Shown here in pieces: positions 3,046 through 10,891 of a DNA stretch of 57,479 bases. The notes under the pieces are model-generated. The model had not been told where the DNA came from. It did not search any database and was given only the letters and a program-made list of their open reading frames with translations. The position numbers and the translations under genes are program-made. The DNA lies in assembly GCA_048939995.1 (NCBI GenBank), contig JBHLOY010000014.1:1-57479 (forward strand), written 5' to 3'. This DNA is from Promethearchaeota archaeon (GTDB taxonomy: Archaea > Asgardarchaeota > Lokiarchaeia > Sigyniarchaeales > SOKP01). Each line of letters opens with the position of its first letter. The first letter of the stretch is position 1.

Positions 3046-4080
3046 TTATTCTTGCATATCTTCAAGTCCTAATTGAGAGATCATCGCCCTTTTTAGTTCT
3101 TCTTTATTTTTGGGTAATCCAAACATGTCCGCATATTTGTCAGTGGTTGTTAATTCATGGGTTCTTCCTTTTTTTGTAGCTGAAATAAGCTCATTGTCTA
3201 AAAGATATTTTACATGTTCATATGCTCCACTACCTCGTATTTTTACTACTGTCGACTTTAATATTGGTTGCTTTAATGCAATTATTGTTAAAGTCCTTAA
3301 GTTTGCTTCTGATATAGCGCCTCCTTTCGCAAATTTTGAAACCCTCTCTGTATATTCAGGTCTTAGTTGCATCTGATATTTCTCACCAACTTGTGCTATG
3401 ATAAGAGCACTTGAACGTTCAAGGTATTCAAACGCAAGTTTATTAACTAAATCTTCAGTATCTTGTTTCGAAATTTCTAGTTTAGTAGATAATTCTTCAA
3501 TATCTAATGGCCTTCCTGCAGCATATAGTGCACCTTCAATCAAATTCTGTTGAAAGTTTCTTAATTCAATCTCTAAATCTTTCTGTTCTAATACTTGGGA
3601 TTTGGCTTCATTCTCTAATTGAGATGAAGATGAAAATTTATTTTCATTTAACTGCTCCTTTACTATATTATTTATTAGATTAATTTCTTCTTCATGTAAC
3701 TCCAATTCTTCTTCAATCTCTAAATCTTCCTGTTCTAATACTTGGGATTTAGCTTCTTTCTCCAATTGAGATGAAGATGAAAATTCATTTTCGTTTAACT
3801 GCTCCTTTACTATATTATTTATTAGATTAATTTCTTCTTCATGTAACTCCAATTCTTCTTCAATCTCTAAATCTTCCTGTTCTAATACTTGGGATTTAGC
3901 TTCTTTCTCCAATTGAGATGAAGATGAAAATTCATTTTCCTTTAACTGCTCCTTTACTATATTATTTATTAGATTAATTTCTTCTTCACGTAACTCCTTT
4001 TCTTCTTCATTTTCTTGTATTTCATCATCAATTAATAATTCTTCATCCTCAATCTCGTCCTTTTGGTCAGGCTCTTTTAT
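3046..4080 (-). CDS. scpB: SMC-Scp complex subunit ScpB with acidic, tandemly repeated N-terminal extension; probable ATA start at 4080
   Basis: IEGALYAAGRPL, LRTLTIIALKQPI, KIRG and TTDKYADMFGL are ScpB motifs. Frame is open from TAA at 4101-4099, with SD-like AAGGTG upstream of ATA 4080. Confidence 0.9.
   Translation of the reverse strand: MKEPDQKDEIEDEELLIDDEIQENEEEKELREEEINLINNIVKEQLKENEFSSSSQLEKEAKSQVLEQEDLEIEEELELHEEEINLINNIVKEQLNENEFSSSSQLEKEAKSQVLEQEDLEIEEELELHEEEINLINNIVKEQLNENKFSSSSQLENEAKSQVLEQKDLEIELRNFQQNLIEGALYAAGRPLDIEELSTKLEISKQDTEDLVNKLAFEYLERSSALIIAQVGEKYQMQLRPEYTERVSKFAKGGAISEANLRTLTIIALKQPILKSTVVKIRGSGAYEHVKYLLDNELISATKKGRTHELTTTDKYADMFGLPKNKEELKRAMISQLGLEDMQE
3565..3997. 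repeat. About 2.9 copies of a near-identical 147-bp (49-codon) tandem repeat inside scpB
   Basis: TC(C/T)AATTGAGATGAAGATGAAAA recurs at 3614, 3761 and 3908 (spacing 147). Confidence 0.97.
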
Positions 4081-4107: not shown

Positions 4108-5121
4108 TTACTGTTTTAAATTAATTTTGAAATCCTTAAAATCTTCATCTTGAGATAAAATTAGCTTATTACCAGTAGATAAGAACATTAATGCTAAGAA
4201 CATTCTTACAAAGTCAAACATTTTACCAATATCACTTTCTTCTTCATTTTTAACAATTTCAGATATTTCGAAGAAGGTTATCTCTTTATTATCTAATTCG
4301 ACCTTGGCTTTTATTCTATTATACCATGAATCATGCAGTTCTTCGATAGTTTTTTCCTTACCACTAATGTGTTTCAACAATTCTTTTGGTAATTTAGCCT
4401 TTGATTTCATTTGAAGCCTTTGCTGTTTTAATTCTTCTCTTCTCAACCTTTGTCTTCTTAACTTTTCTTTATTTTGCATAGTTTCAATGATGGCTGATCT
4501 CATTGCCTCAAATAGTTCTTCTTTTGTAGAAACAAGTAACTTTGGTTGAATTGGCTGAGGTAACGTTTTTGGAATTGTTCTTGCGTGTTTTTCTCGTAGT
4601 TTTTCAAGTTCTTCTCTTTTTTGTATTTCTTCTTCTTCCTTAATTATACTAGAAATCTTGTAATGATGTAAATATGCTGAATTTTTTAAAGCAATTCCAG
4701 AAATCTTATAATTAATTAATTCCTCATGGAGCATATTGCTAAAAAATTTATCAACGAGAGAAGCTAAATCATAAAAAGCGACATTTGAATCTTTTGCTAA
4801 TTCAAAATCCAGCAGACTTGAAAATGGAGGTTTCTGCCAAAACTTAAGTTCTAATCTTTCTTTCTGTAATAAAGCCGGATCTTCTTCAACACCTGCTATT
4901 AGTTCTTCTTCTAAAACTTCCTTTATCTCAGATTCCTTAGTTCTATCGACAAAATCAGGATGGGAGATGATTTGATTTAACAATTTTATAATATCTATTT
5001 TCTTAGATTTGGAAGGAATCGTGATATTGTTTTGAGAGGCAAACTCTCTTAATTCTTTTACAGTCCAATTCTTGAAATTATTCGTTTCCTTTGATTTATT
5101 ATTCTCTGTAATTAATAGCAC
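4108..5121 (-). CDS. scpA: ScpA-like kleisin with N-terminal HeH/Rho-N-like domain
   Basis: Lies between smc and scpB. SGIALKNSAYLHHYKI resembles the kleisin N-helix and FVRMFLALMFL...LSQDEDFKDF the C-terminal winged helix. N-terminal WTVKELREFA...KSKKIDIIKLL. Confidence 0.8.
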   Translation of the reverse strand: MLLITENNKSKETNNFKNWTVKELREFASQNNITIPSKSKKIDIIKLLNQIISHPDFVDRTKESEIKEVLEEELIAGVEEDPALLQKERLELKFWQKPPFSSLLDFELAKDSNVAFYDLASLVDKFFSNMLHEELINYKISGIALKNSAYLHHYKISSIIKEEEEIQKREELEKLREKHARTIPKTLPQPIQPKLLVSTKEELFEAMRSAIIETMQNKEKLRRQRLRREELKQQRLQMKSKAKLPKELLKHISGKEKTIEELHDSWYNRIKAKVELDNKEITFFEISEIVKNEEESDIGKMFDFVRMFLALMFLSTGNKLILSQDEDFKDFKINLKQ

Positions 5122-5137
5122 CTCATATATTATAAAC

Positions 5138-8100
5138 CTAATTTTCTTCTACATTCGTAGGAATTTCTGAAATATCTAAAAGCCGTTTTGCTTCCTCCTC
5201 CAAGTCAACACTAAATACGTCTGTAATCCCCGATTGTTGCATTGATACCCCATATATTCTGTCCGCATTTACAATATTTTCCTCCCTATGACTTATAACC
5301 AAAAATTGGGCTTGACCCGAAATCTCTTTCAGCAACAGGGAAACCCTGTGAACATTTGGACCATCCAGCTGAGCATCGATCTCATCGAGAACGTAAAAGG
5401 GGCTGGGCATGAACTCTTGTATTGCAAAGATGAACGAGAGCGCGACGAGTGTTTTTTCGCCGCCGCTGAGAATCTCGAGGCTTGAAATTTTTTTGCCCCG
5501 GGGTCGAGCTTCGATGCTGATACCTCCTTCAAAGGGTTTATCAGGTCGGTCGAGGATCATTTTAGCTGAGCCGCCTGGGCTTAATTTTTGGAATAAACGG
5601 CTGAATTCTCTATTAATTTCATGGTAGGCTTTCATGAAGGTTCGAGTTTTTTCGAGTTCAATTTTTTCGATGGCGTCGAGTATAGATTTTCGTTCTCTTT
5701 GGATGGTTTGTCTTCGCATATCGATTTCGTCGAAGCGTTCTTTAACATTATCATATTGTTCTATGGCTTTTAAATTGACGGGTTCAAGGGCCTTTTGTTT
5801 TTTAGAGGCTTCCGAGATATCTGTTTGTAAGCCACTCTCAGAAAGGTCAGGAGTTACTTGGGGTAATGAGCCGTAATCTTTAGATCGTTGATACAAGGTT
5901 TCAATTTGATCTGATGTCATGATTTTTTTTGATTCATAGTTATTTAGTTTAGAATTTTCCATGGAGATGTCGGCTTTTAGGTCATTTAGAATCTTTTGAT
6001 AAGATTTTTGTTTTTTCCATGATTCATCTTTTTGTTGGATGAACGTATCAATTTCTTCTTGTTTTAGTCGCTTTTTCTCATCTTCGGCAGTTAAGCTTTC
6101 TTTTATTTTTTCGATATTTTGTAAAGTTGTATTTATTTGTTCTTCAGTGGTTTTAATATCTTCATTTAAAGAGATGATTTTTTGTTCACGTTCTTTATTT
6201 TTATTTAATTCATTTAATCTTTTTTGAGATTTTTGTAGGTCCTTGTTGAATCTATTTAATTCATTTTGGGTTTTTTTTTGAGCTTCAAGCGCCTCATTTT
6301 TTTCCTTACGTAGAGCATCGATTTGATTCTGAATTCCAGTGACTGTTGTTTCAATTTCTTTTACGTGAGAGTTGAATTCTTCGATGTTGTTTTGGCAGAT
6401 ATTAATATTTTTATCTGCCTCGATATTTTCTTTTGCCAGTTCTTCAATATTATTGATTACCATCATAATGTTTTCTAGTGCTCTAAGTTGATCCAACTTT
6501 TCTTGTAGTTTTTGATTAAGTTCGTCAATCTCTTGTCTAATTGCTTCGATATTTCCCCAATAATTTTCCTTTTCAATTACTAAATTATCAATCTTCTCAT
6601 CTAGATCATCTTGTTCCAAATTTAATTTATTGATTTCTTCTTTTGTCTGATTTATAATTTCTTCCTTCTTTTCGATAGAAATATCCAATTCTTTTACATT
6701 ATTTTCTATCTCCAATATATTTTCAAATAGATTCTGAATACCTTTTAGATCTTGTAACTTTATTTGTAAATCTTCTAGATCTTTTTGTTTAATATCGATT
6801 TCTGATTGAATAGTTGAAATTTTTTCCCAGTACTCATTTCTAAGATTTTTTAATTGCTCAATCTCACTCTTGAAATCGTCTTGTTGTAATTGATTAATTG
6901 AGGCATTTCTCTTCTGAATTTCCTCCTCTGATGTGGTGACAAACTGGTTAATTTCAACTATTCTTTTATTAACTTCTTCAAGTCTTTGGCTAAAATTAGA
7001 TAAATTTTCTGAATCATTCTTCTTTTGAGTATTTAATTCAGTTAATTTCATATCAACTTCATTTAGGTCTTCATTTTGGGAAGTTATATTTTCTGAAATT
7101 TCCTCTAATTGCTTGTATAATTCTTGGCTCTTAGACATAGTTAACTTTCTTAAAGATAAATACACATTCTCTAAGATTTCCATTAAGTCTTGCACAAAAC
7201 TATCGAAAGTAGATGTTGATTGTTGTATTTCTACGTCTGCGGATTCTTTGACCCTATTAATCAATTGATCAAGAGTCGTATCAACATTTTCAGTAAATAG
7301 TGTTAATGTTTGTAGAATTGAATTAAGCATTTGGGACATTTCAGATTTTTCTTCCTCATCTTCGCTTACAGTTTTAATAGATTTCATTATATCAACGATA
7401 TCCAAAACGAATTTCTTGAAATTATCGGCAGAAGATTCTATGGCTTCTGCATTTGATTGTTGAATATTGCTTTTTATTGATTCAACTGAAATATTAATGT
7501 TTTGAGTAAGCATATTTAGAATTTGAAGAATGCCTGTTACATCTTCAGTATTTCTTTCATATTCCTTTTCAGAATTTTCAATTTTTAATAATAAATTATC
7601 TTTTTCAGTAGTTAAGCCATTTATACGACTATTTATATTTTCCTTTTTAGTTTCTAGATTTTTTTGATCGTTTGTTGTCTCATTAAGGTTTTTCTTTAAA
7701 CTGCTTACCTTTAGATCTAAGTCTTTCTTTTCACGTTCTAAGCTTGTTAGTTCTTTTTTAGTTATTTTTAGTTTAGTATTTATATTCTCAATCTTTGCTT
7801 TATTATCAAATATTTCAGTTTCAATGGAACTCTGCTTCATAATCAGAAGCTCTAATTTTTGTTCATTCTTTCTATATGTTGAATCTTCCTGTTTCGCTTT
7901 TTCTTTGAGGTTATTTAGTTCTTTGGTTAGATTTTCTCGATTAGCTATAAGTTCCTTCAAAATTGCCTCAGTTTCTTTTCCTTTGCTTAATTCTTTAATC
8001 CTATTTTCAATGGACTCCTTTCTATTATTTAATTTTTGAATTCTGTCTCTATTCATTTTAATTTCTGTTTTAGTTGAAGATAGTTCAGATTGCAATTCTG

Positions 8101-9586
8101 TTAATTTTGAATTGAGTTGGTATTTTGATTCTTGCAATTCCTTAATTTTTAGTTCTAAATCTTTTTGTTTCTGATTTTCTTTTGTAATATCACTATTTAA
8201 TCCATCTAGTTTATTCCTAAGTTCCATCTCTTCGCTTTTTACTGTCTTTATAGCATCTTCTATGCTTTCAGCTTCACCCTTTAACTTTTCTAGATCTAAT
8301 TCCAATTTCTGTTTCTTTTCCTCATTCTTTTTAATATTTTCTTTAAGCATCTTGATTTGAGCTTTGCTAGAAGATACATTTTGCTTTAAATTCGAGATCT
8401 CAGTATTATGAGAAGCTTTGAGATCTTCTTTTTCATTTATCTTTAAATCAAGTTCTGCTTGTGTTTGCTGTTTTAACTCTATAGATTTTTTGGCTTCTTC
8501 AATTTGGTTTTCAAATTCTAAAATTTGATTATTCTCATTCTCGATAAGTAAATCAAAAGTTTCTGTTTCTTCAAGTTTCATTTGTAGTTTTTCAAGACTT
8601 TTTATTTCTTGAGTTATCTTATCAATGGATTTATGGGCTAAATCTAATGTTGTTTGACTGGCAGACAACTGAGTTTTTAATTGAGTTATATTTTCATTTA
8701 TGATTTCTCGATCTTTTTCTTTTTCAGATATAGTGTTTTGAATATTTTCCATTACTAAGGATTCTTGCTTTAAAACTTCTTCCTGTCTGGTTATTTTCTC
8801 CTCAAGTTCTTCTATAAGCTTATTCGATTCTTCAATTTTTTTTTCTAATTCAGCTTCTTCTTCCTTTAATTTTGATATCTTTAATGCTAATAACTGAGAA
8901 TTATAAAAATTTATTCTCTCATCCAATTCCTTCCAAGCTAATGCATCATTTTTTTCTTTTTCAACTTTTTTAAGTTGTACAGAGACTTCTTTAAAAATTG
9001 CTTCAAATTGGCCTAGATCTCGTTCTGCTTTTTCTAACTCCTTCATGGTAGCATCCTTCATTTCATCATATTTTTGTAATCCAATTAATTCTTCAATGAA
9101 AATTCTACGCTCTTCAGTATTCATATGAGTTAACTCTACGATTTTTCCTTGTAATACAAACTGATTTGATCCATCCGGATCTACATTAGCTGTTGCTAGA
9201 GCGTTGAGAATTTGTTGGCGAGTAGCTCTTTTTCCATTCATTCTATATCCGCCTCCACCACCGCGCTTTATACTTCGAGAAATTTGAAATTCATCTCCAT
9301 CTCCTGGAAAAACCTTCTCGCTATTATCAAAGAATAGAGTTACTTTTGTTCTTTGTGATGGATTTTTACCTCTAGAGCCTGCAAAAATAAGATCCTCTAA
9401 ACTTTTCGCTCTCATTGTTTTTTTACTCAACCTACCTAAAGCAAAACATAAGGCATCAATGATATTAGATTTTCCTGCTCCATTTGGTCCAACAATACAG
9501 GTAAAGCCGCTTGATAGGCGAATAGTGACAGTTCTATCTCCAAAAGACTTAAATCCAGTCATAGAAATTTTTTTAATATAAGTCAA
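5138..9586 (-). CDS. smc: SMC-family ATPase, 1482 aa, with non-canonical hinge region
   Basis: GFKSF, Walker A GPNGAGKSN, Q-loop VLQG, PVNLKA, signature LSGGE, Walker B/D-loop VLDEIDAQLD, H-switch ISH. TTG start after SD AAGGAG. Confidence 0.95.
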   Translation of the reverse strand: MTYIKKISMTGFKSFGDRTVTIRLSSGFTCIVGPNGAGKSNIIDALCFALGRLSKKTMRAKSLEDLIFAGSRGKNPSQRTKVTLFFDNSEKVFPGDGDEFQISRSIKRGGGGGYRMNGKRATRQQILNALATANVDPDGSNQFVLQGKIVELTHMNTEERRIFIEELIGLQKYDEMKDATMKELEKAERDLGQFEAIFKEVSVQLKKVEKEKNDALAWKELDERINFYNSQLLALKISKLKEEEAELEKKIEESNKLIEELEEKITRQEEVLKQESLVMENIQNTISEKEKDREIINENITQLKTQLSASQTTLDLAHKSIDKITQEIKSLEKLQMKLEETETFDLLIENENNQILEFENQIEEAKKSIELKQQTQAELDLKINEKEDLKASHNTEISNLKQNVSSSKAQIKMLKENIKKNEEKKQKLELDLEKLKGEAESIEDAIKTVKSEEMELRNKLDGLNSDITKENQKQKDLELKIKELQESKYQLNSKLTELQSELSSTKTEIKMNRDRIQKLNNRKESIENRIKELSKGKETEAILKELIANRENLTKELNNLKEKAKQEDSTYRKNEQKLELLIMKQSSIETEIFDNKAKIENINTKLKITKKELTSLEREKKDLDLKVSSLKKNLNETTNDQKNLETKKENINSRINGLTTEKDNLLLKIENSEKEYERNTEDVTGILQILNMLTQNINISVESIKSNIQQSNAEAIESSADNFKKFVLDIVDIMKSIKTVSEDEEEKSEMSQMLNSILQTLTLFTENVDTTLDQLINRVKESADVEIQQSTSTFDSFVQDLMEILENVYLSLRKLTMSKSQELYKQLEEISENITSQNEDLNEVDMKLTELNTQKKNDSENLSNFSQRLEEVNKRIVEINQFVTTSEEEIQKRNASINQLQQDDFKSEIEQLKNLRNEYWEKISTIQSEIDIKQKDLEDLQIKLQDLKGIQNLFENILEIENNVKELDISIEKKEEIINQTKEEINKLNLEQDDLDEKIDNLVIEKENYWGNIEAIRQEIDELNQKLQEKLDQLRALENIMMVINNIEELAKENIEADKNINICQNNIEEFNSHVKEIETTVTGIQNQIDALRKEKNEALEAQKKTQNELNRFNKDLQKSQKRLNELNKNKEREQKIISLNEDIKTTEEQINTTLQNIEKIKESLTAEDEKKRLKQEEIDTFIQQKDESWKKQKSYQKILNDLKADISMENSKLNNYESKKIMTSDQIETLYQRSKDYGSLPQVTPDLSESGLQTDISEASKKQKALEPVNLKAIEQYDNVKERFDEIDMRRQTIQRERKSILDAIEKIELEKTRTFMKAYHEINREFSRLFQKLSPGGSAKMILDRPDKPFEGGISIEARPRGKKISSLEILSGGEKTLVALSFIFAIQEFMPSPFYVLDEIDAQLDGPNVHRVSLLLKEISGQAQFLVISHREENIVNADRIYGVSMQQSGITDVFSVDLEEEAKRLLDISEIPTNVEEN

Positions 9587-9694: not shown

Positions 9695-10891
9695 TTAAAA
9701 CTTGTTAAAGATTGCATCAACAATGTTCTTTAGGTGTTTTGGATTTAATGCTATAAAATATAAATTGTAATTAAGAAAGCAATCTGGCATAGAGTGCTCG
9801 AATGCTTGATCATTCTTTTTAGAGTAATTCAAAATGCCCATACTGTGTAGAGCTTTCATAAGTTCAAAAAAATCATTTGAACTCTTATTATATCCTATAG
9901 ATTCACATGATATAAAGTATAGCTCTCTTAATTCACTAAAAGTAATATAGTAGTTAGAATTCTTTAGAAAATGATTCGATAAGTTATCGATAAAGAGTAA
10001 AGTAATTATATCCTCTTCAGAAACATAATTCAACAATGCAAAATCATCTGATATATGAATAGAATCGAATTGATTATGAAGTATCTCAATTATCTCGGAA
10101 TTATTAACAGCGTAGCGATTTGATAAAATAGGATAGAGTTCTCTCAATATATCAATTCCCTTTCCCGGTACAGGAACATAATGTTCAAAAATTAAATCTG
10201 TTATGAATTCTATCAATTCTTTATCAATTTCACTTATAAACGTTAAATTGACTCTTTGTTGAATGATATCAAAAAGTTCCTTAAAATTGTAGTAACTTAA
10301 CTTTTTTTTGAGATCAAATTGTTCAAGTAAATCTAAAGTACTGGGGGTGAGCACTTTATTTACTGTTGAGATTAGATTTATCTTTGATTCCTTACTATAT
10401 TGTAGAATTTTTTTGTAATATTTTGGCTTTAAATTTTCAATATTACTGAAAAGAAGGATTAAATTACTATTAGCTTTATTATTAATAAATTTAAAAGAAT
10501 TCCATAGTCCAGCTAGATTGCAGGTTAAAAGATTCGTAAAATTAAATTTGATATTACTTAATTTACTAATTTCAGTGATTAATGAAAAAAGTATCTCTTT
10601 AATACTCTTCTCTTTACAATCTATAGAAATTTTATGGATTTTTATAAGGCCAACTTCTAGTTCAACTAGATCTTGTACTACCTTGTTGACAATAACTTTT
10701 TTACCAATCCCTTGGACTCCTTGATATAATACATTTAAACAAAAATTATCAGAAAATGAATCTTTTAAAATAGAATAAAGGTTAGACTCCTCCTTTTTTC
10801 TATGCAGTATCTTAGGAGGAACATAATTCTGATCGTATATCGCACGTGGTCCTACGAAGTTGTTTACCAATTTTGATTTTGTGATCATCAT
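9695..10891 (-). CDS. Divergent Orc1/Cdc6-like AAA+ protein (degenerate Walker B)
   Basis: YVPPKILHRKKE, GVQGIGKK (Walker A variant), IDCKE, YNFKELFDIIQQRV and a C-terminal wHTH-like region. The Walker B position reads LFSNIENL. Confidence 0.75.
   Translation of the reverse strand: MMITKSKLVNNFVGPRAIYDQNYVPPKILHRKKEESNLYSILKDSFSDNFCLNVLYQGVQGIGKKVIVNKVVQDLVELEVGLIKIHKISIDCKEKSIKEILFSLITEISKLSNIKFNFTNLLTCNLAGLWNSFKFINNKANSNLILLFSNIENLKPKYYKKILQYSKESKINLISTVNKVLTPSTLDLLEQFDLKKKLSYYNFKELFDIIQQRVNLTFISEIDKELIEFITDLIFEHYVPVPGKGIDILRELYPILSNRYAVNNSEIIEILHNQFDSIHISDDFALLNYVSEEDIITLLFIDNLSNHFLKNSNYYITFSELRELYFISCESIGYNKSSNDFFELMKALHSMGILNYSKKNDQAFEHSMPDCFLNYNLYFIALNPKHLKNIVDAIFNKF

Follow-up and report, generated by a model that had tools for sequence, protein, structure and literature searches.

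A 1482-amino acid (aa) Smc protein encoded in a Lokiarchaeia genome raises the question of what joins two Smc chains when no hinge is found between their arms. The gene lies on contig JBHLOY010000014.1 (assembly GCA_048939995.1); the window, here meaning the whole stretch of DNA that was analyzed, spans 57,479 nucleotides. The best explanation of this locus is that it encodes the hinge-less, long-armed Smc of a Smc-ScpAB complex, fixed in one order of Lokiarchaeia. The gene and its two head halves are as follows.

5138..9586, minus strand: hinge-less smc gene, a 1482-aa open reading frame above the TIGR02168 cut-off and below that of TIGR02169
9080..9586, minus strand: N-terminal half of the ATPase head (aa 1-169), containing Walker A (9467-9490) and the Q-loop (9146-9160)
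5141..5626, minus strand: C-terminal half of the ATPase head, with the signature at 5453-5470, Walker B at 5381-5395, the D-loop at 5363-5380, and the H-loop at 5288-5299

The original prediction, made from the sequence alone, described a protein of this length with canonical heads, and all six ATPase motifs (Walker A, Q-loop, signature, Walker B, D-loop, and H-loop) are present. The D-loop reads DAQLD here and DAALD in 91 of 105 full-length relatives, with Gln in 14 of the 105. The whole protein scores 605.5 against TIGR02168 (cut-off 567, exceeded) and 620.9 against the archaeal TIGR02169 (below its cut-off of 729), while Rad50 and RecN models score far under their cut-offs.

The same prediction held that the protein has neither a hinge nor a CxxC hook, and both absences are confirmed. 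SMC_N is the sole Pfam match; SMC_hinge has no match in the full protein, nor when aa 600-860 are searched by themselves at E up to 1. Hinged paralogues put through the same test return E values of about 1e-30. A six-frame search of the genome with PF06470 matches another gene only (on contig C11) and nothing in smc. Gly and Pro, predicted to be nearly absent from the center, number three and zero, respectively, across aa 501-900, which also lack Cys. CxxC is found nowhere in any of the 105 full-length relatives, and none has G-x6-G-x3-G in mid-protein. These relatives are 1469-1487 aa long and have a common layout, which rules out an assembly artifact or frameshift. The Rad50 zinc hook (PF04423) is likewise absent from the genome search, and SMC head queries across the whole genome detect no Rad50-type head. 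No Mre11/SbcD partner gene adjoins smc; its neighbors are a kleisin, ScpB, and an Orc1/Cdc6-like gene.

The predicted placement of smc beside scpA and scpB was upheld.

4108..5121, minus strand: divergent ScpA kleisin, 337 aa, 16 nt 3' of smc
3046..3912, minus strand: ScpB kite with an acidic N-terminal extension (PF04079, TIGR00281); the frame is open to 4098, and the true start may be further upstream

Neither Pfam nor NCBIfam recognizes the kleisin; it matches Asgard ScpA in a profile-to-profile comparison (hhalign, 99.8% over 219 columns). The order smc-scpA-scpB is retained among the relatives fetched, with no additional conserved gene in the operon. In this genome, which is 98% complete, ScpA-like and ScpB genes occur once each, and no Smc-type head is found besides this one; this is its sole Smc-ScpA-ScpB set. 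The N-terminal extension of the kleisin (window 4950-5075, minus strand) weakly resembles HeH/LEM or Rho_N domains (E about 2e-4), at a place where its orthologs carry lysine-rich tails. Directly upstream of smc lies a divergent Orc1/Cdc6-like gene (window 9695-10891, minus strand; TIGR02928 E 5.5e-15, far under the cut-off), which occupies the same position in genome G053 but not in distant relatives.

A check for a second canonical smc, proposed with the original prediction, gave a divided answer: the genome has no further canonical Smc, but it does have a second, hinged SMC, which is Smc5/6-like.

G000:C11:433002-437590 (L002:9003-13591): second SMC, 1132 aa, with a weak hinge, a degenerate Walker A, and a very long branch

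Genes of 216 aa and 176 aa follow it downstream, and the three form a probable Smc5/6-like SMC-kleisin-kite operon, judging from the degenerate motifs, the long branch, and the operon, with the label drawn by comparison with the archaeal complex of van Hooff et al. (10.1101/2024.01.07.573240). The hinge-less Smc is not of the Smc5/6 type: its heads are only 29-30% identical to those of the C11 protein, and its partner is of the ScpB type.

What occupies the apex instead is a duplicated helical unit.

7121..7546, minus strand: apex module, a conserved acidic helical hairpin in place of the hinge (aa 681-822)
7373..7540, minus strand: module repeat unit 1, outgoing helix, hydrophobic period 3.65 (aa 683-738)
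7337..7372, minus strand: acidic turn of variable length, the predicted fold-back point (aa 739-750); the modeled helix is interrupted at aa 742-746, and relatives have indels
7160..7327, minus strand: module repeat unit 2, returning helix, hydrophobic period 3.66 (aa 754-809)

Two similar segments joined by an acidic linker at the gene midpoint had been claimed, and both are recovered. The linker (aa 741-749, nt 7340-7366) spans the midpoint at 7362. The segments, starting at aa 687 and 758 (an offset of about 71 aa), align without gaps over 55 aa with 14 identities, scoring 87 against a maximum of 54 in 2000 shuffles. Equally high scores occur in 2 of 276 arm-window pairs, so pairwise similarity alone is not unique within this protein. 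In each of the 13 SMCs tested, the repeat aligns best at an offset of 66-73 aa, and profiles of the two halves match each other at 98.6%. Within the family, conservation of the repeat cores is on a par with that of the heads (0.83-0.95, versus 0.6-0.8 for the arms). Across distant families, module identity is no higher than that of the arms (0.52-0.56 versus 0.43-0.64), and it is the hydrophobic pattern rather than identity that is kept.

That pattern differs from the pattern of the arms. Conserved hydrophobic columns are about twice as frequent in the module (0.31 versus 0.15-0.19 in most of the arm), and the hydrophobic period is 3.65 (11/3-like) versus 3.5. This density and period suggest that the module may have more buried surface than a two-helix coil needs. 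Basic residues are scarce in the module, whose net charge is between -11 and -22. A 3.65 period, dense hydrophobics, and acidity fit a straight bundle with three or more helices and are ill-suited to DNA binding. Thus, it is unlikely that this acidic module binds DNA in the way that a basic hinge does.

Longer arms were also predicted, and the arms are indeed long and visibly repetitive.

7547..9079, minus strand: N-terminal arm strand (about aa 170-680), heptad period 3.5, in units of ~97 aa
8258..8548, minus strand: N-arm repeat unit (aa 347-443), whose profile matches that of the following unit at 99% over 93 columns
7967..8257, minus strand: N-arm repeat unit (aa 444-540), where the 97-aa gap of the G090 ortholog falls
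5627..7120, minus strand: C-terminal arm strand (about aa 823-1320), in units of ~90 aa
6659..6928, minus strand: C-arm repeat unit (aa 887-976), where the 90-aa gap of the G090 ortholog falls
6389..6658, minus strand: C-arm repeat unit (aa 977-1066), whose profile matches that of the preceding unit at 99% over 84 columns

The span from Walker A to Walker B is 1370 aa here, within a range of 1370-1374 aa for the hinge-less proteins, versus 1081-1100 aa in nearly all hinged Asgard Smc. Self-similarity peaks at offsets of 97 and 195 in the N-arm and of 90 and 180 in the C-arm. Block profiles within each arm match at 86-99%, scores that coiled-coil composition inflates. With 160-190 aa allowed for a canonical hinge, we estimate about 500 aa per strand up to the module base, versus 341 in hinged Smc, and an arm of roughly 70 nm plus a 10-nm module, i.e., roughly 70-80 nm. 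The G090 ortholog (1299 aa) is missing one unit from each arm, 97 aa from the N-arm and 90 aa from the C-arm, a symmetric deletion that shows antiparallel arms in register. The size of this deletion fits the 91-aa functional arm period of Bacillus Smc (PMC5344682). Long antiparallel coiled-coil arms with a fold-back at the midpoint are thus supported by the heptad period, the symmetric deletion, and the modeled turn described below.

The module is widespread within one lineage. It occurs in 125 of 151 genomes of the class Lokiarchaeia, in all four families of the host order, and in none of seven genomes from other Lokiarchaeia orders. A sample of the phylum yielded one matching genome outside the order (G250), on an 8.6-kb contig with a head nearly identical to that of G039; this is probably bin contamination. 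The homologs are named Promethearchaeota or Lokiarchaeota. An exhaustive search of 1.84 billion representatives with the module profile returned 44 clusters, in which every strong match is to this Smc or to one paralogous family. The cultured Promethearchaeum syntrophicum carries a hinge-less Smc (WP_147661926.1). Thus, the suggestion of an unusual Asgard condensin type stands insofar as this is a distinct condensin-type SMC, but it is confined to one Lokiarchaeia order and is not general to Asgard archaea.

Of the 151 genomes, 28 have a strong canonical hinge (E below 1e-20); the two genera sampled most heavily, with 90 genomes searched, have none. Genomes with a hinged 1200-aa Smc carry a second ScpA and a second ScpB. 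Judged by sequence, SMCs of three types are present together in some genomes, and the lineage studied here lacks the hinged Smc set. At loci L053-L059, the hinged 1200-aa Smc adjoins a fast-evolving scpB with no kleisin between them, and a second ScpA-like gene lies elsewhere. Strong SMC hinges also occur in frames of only 238 and 247 aa (G116:C96:12793-13134 and G141:C72:87110-87448, respectively), which may be hinge proteins that stand alone or what is left of a disrupted smc. In a phylogeny of the heads, a check proposed with the original prediction, the hinge-less heads form a single clade (100/100) that groups with hinged Asgard Smc, far from the Smc5/6-like copy. Hinged Loki Smc joins this clade weakly in the head trees (86/75 and 82, unstarred), and either the hinge-less or the hinged Loki Smc may be the vertical ortholog of other Asgard Smc.

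We find no canonical hinge fold in structural predictions of the module. The AlphaFold model is all-helical, with two long helices and a single turn at aa 742-746 (pLDDT 74, pTM 0.38). Covariation is weakly enriched along the antiparallel diagonal, with 13 of the top 30 pairs at i+j 130-149 (Neff 40). That the center is instead a degenerate hinge, or a compact four-helix bundle within a single chain, is a very improbable reading. The single-module pTM of only 0.38, the scores of 63-65 for three of the five models, and a polar middle stretch in each unit that could bend would allow it; yet both this model and that of the paralog described below put the main turn between the units, and the center is predicted to have no strands and has almost no Gly or Pro. 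The degenerate hinge is ruled out by an hhalign similarity to the canonical hinge of 0.1%. As alignments and models show, the chain is predicted to fold back at aa 742-746, the last 60-70 residues of each strand forming a conserved, pseudo-symmetric module.

Fold searches with this hairpin were uninformative. The single-hairpin model matches two-helix pieces only: Foldseek against the PDB gave no match at E below 0.001, the VIA fold search gave tied generic hairpins only, and an ESM Atlas feature search reached 0.87 at best, in clusters without names. A two-copy ESMFold2 prediction of aa 655-845 scored 0.01 ("no answer") and speaks neither for nor against binding.

A second protein family is more informative about how two modules might be arranged. 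In the Promethearchaeum family of genomes, the module occurs twice per chain in a non-SMC family of 900-1300 aa, which matches no Pfam family and has a probably beta-rich region and a lysine-rich tail.

L036:3984-6746: two-module gene of P. syntrophicum (DSAG12_01461)
L034:4000-7122: two-module gene
L038:3681-6755: two-module gene
L039:5103-8318: two-module gene
L047:2144-6001: two-module gene
L049:4204-6978: two-module gene

Most of these loci adjoin a conserved gene of 470 aa and a gene with a weak JAB/MPN domain. The paralog is 21-26% identical to the Smc module. AlphaFold predicts four long helical legs in the P. syntrophicum two-module region, with turns at ~97, 223, and 350 (pLDDT 88, pTM 0.61) and both module tips equidistant from the central turn. 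Its best matches are single-chain four-helix bundles that span both copies, led by 6egc (Z 16, rmsd 2.7, 146 of 147 residues); an Atlas shape search with the same model gave no informative match. The bundle is read from the ranges of these fold-search matches, and the model is of a single tethered chain with a diverged second copy and a 15-sequence alignment; tethered amphipathic helices pack readily in predictions, which limits its weight. Within this limit, the paralog indicates that a pair of modules can pack laterally, both tips at one end, the geometry that an SMC ring needs.

We propose a four-helix arrangement for Smc, supported indirectly by the two-copy paralog, which is modeled as a bundle across both copies. 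The hairpins of two Smc chains would lie side by side with both tips pointing the same way, forming a straight four-helix bundle some 10 nm in length, and this bundle would close the Smc-Smc-kleisin ring in the hinge's stead. The arms, at roughly 70-80 nm, would have been lengthened in steps of one coiled-coil super-period, and would link ATP turnover to loop extrusion and DNA capture in the manner of other Smc-ScpAB complexes. On models and analogy, the apex module is probably the dimerization site of Smc. The fuller statement, that a parallel four-helix bundle of two tips replaces the hinge in a loop-extruding Smc-ScpAB complex, is likewise the reading we favor, with moderate confidence; the presence of a Smc5/6-like complex in the same genome counts against it.

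The apex might alternatively dock another protein rather than homodimerize, with the chains held by ATP-engaged heads, arm contacts, and the kleisin, and with an open or transient ring. We consider this unlikely. Its net charge could oppose self-association of the module, which might be a general interaction unit given its presence in unrelated proteins: the two-module coiled-coil family and a GTPase fusion. The latter (G127, L048:1036-3669) is an 878-aa protein with a small-GTPase-like N-terminus and one and a half module copies resembling the Smc version of family f1, encoded on a contig of 5 kb from a bin that is 8% contaminated. However, the operon has no extra conserved gene as a docking partner, and two module copies in one chain are modeled as packing together. 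Moreover, the two-module family is seen in some families only and was not found in this genome, whereas the Smc module is kept throughout the order.

Pairing could also be antiparallel, tail to tail or between complexes, so that Smc tethers distant DNA or forms chains without a closed ring. Antiparallel apex pairing is known for RecN and has been proposed for Rad50 hooks. Inter-complex hook contacts in archaeal Rad50 (PMC7334584) provide a precedent for tail-to-tail pairing; the pseudo-two-fold symmetry of the hairpin permits either orientation, and very long arms suit bridging. Nevertheless, the heads and partners are of the Smc-ScpAB type and not that of RecN or Rad50, the chain geometry of the paralog sets both tips at the same end, and arm length shifts by a whole super-period, as expected if two aligned arms stay in phase. 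We therefore regard antiparallel pairing as quite improbable, and retain the parallel bundle.

If the parallel bundle is correct, this would be a natural loop-extruding motor without a hinge gate or a basic hinge DNA site, and with arms about half as long again. Models of SMC loading and loop extrusion assign the hinge different roles, as a DNA gate, a DNA-binding site, or a mere clasp, and differ over whether step size is set by arm length. An acidic apex and longer arms, in a cultured Asgard archaeon and beside a hinged Smc, would make these questions testable. There is also a warning for evolutionary reconstruction, in that the Loki condensin-related SMC used to trace the origins of eukaryotic condensin and cohesin is structurally derived. 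Van Hooff et al. (10.1101/2024.01.07.573240) described an adjacent SMC-kleisin-kite trio in P. syntrophicum, related to condensin and cohesin. We infer that this trio is the operon of the hinge-less family because it is the only such trio found in that genome. The word "hinge" is absent from the supplements of that study and appears in its text only in a general sense; hinge loss is not reported there. A literature search, weak in subscription journals, found no paper on a hinge-less Loki or Asgard SMC or on the apex module. Thus, the apex module is undescribed in the literature found, while hinge loss as such is already known from marine Actinobacteria. It is about an even call whether the wider picture holds, namely, that the main condensin of an Asgard order has a cysteine-free four-helix apex shared with non-SMC proteins, has arms built of whole super-periods, and has replaced hinged Smc in many genomes.

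Compared with prokaryotic Smc-ScpAB (B. subtilis and Pyrococcus; TIGR02168/TIGR02169; PF02463 and PF06470), the Loki Smc has similar head motifs, gene order, and antiparallel arms. It differs in having no hinge, an acidic helical apex, and arms visibly made of 97- and 90-aa repeats. Rad50/SbcC, with its zinc hook, similarly has SMC-like ATPase arms that fold back without an SMC hinge, and those of RecN do so at a helical apex. Unlike both, the Loki Smc has no CxxC and is partnered by ScpA and ScpB. The four-helix bundle of chemoreceptors (PDB 1qu7 and 3g67), in which long hairpins pair in parallel, is among the tied fold matches (Z about 10) and serves as an analogy for the proposed Smc dimer. 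This Z is typical of any long hairpin, and no homology is claimed; a chemoreceptor origin is without sequence support, with no match to the MCP signaling domain (PF00015) at E up to 1. A clade of hinge-less SMCs is known from marine Actinobacteria (PMC12153180), with SMC heads and neither a hinge nor a CxxC hook, as in the Loki Smc. Those proteins are bacterial and of near-canonical length as retrieved, and no duplicated apex or partner genes have been described for them. Hinge loss in the two groups looks independent because the module profile found no such sequences among the 1.84 billion representatives. The closest functional parallel is engineered: B. subtilis Smc carrying the zinc hook of Pyrococcus Rad50 demonstrates that an unrelated dimerization domain can replace the hinge, and this Smc works with arm lengths tolerated in steps of ~91 aa (PMC5344682). 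That construct is artificial and metal-dependent, whereas the Loki Smc is natural, cysteine-free, and fixed across an order.
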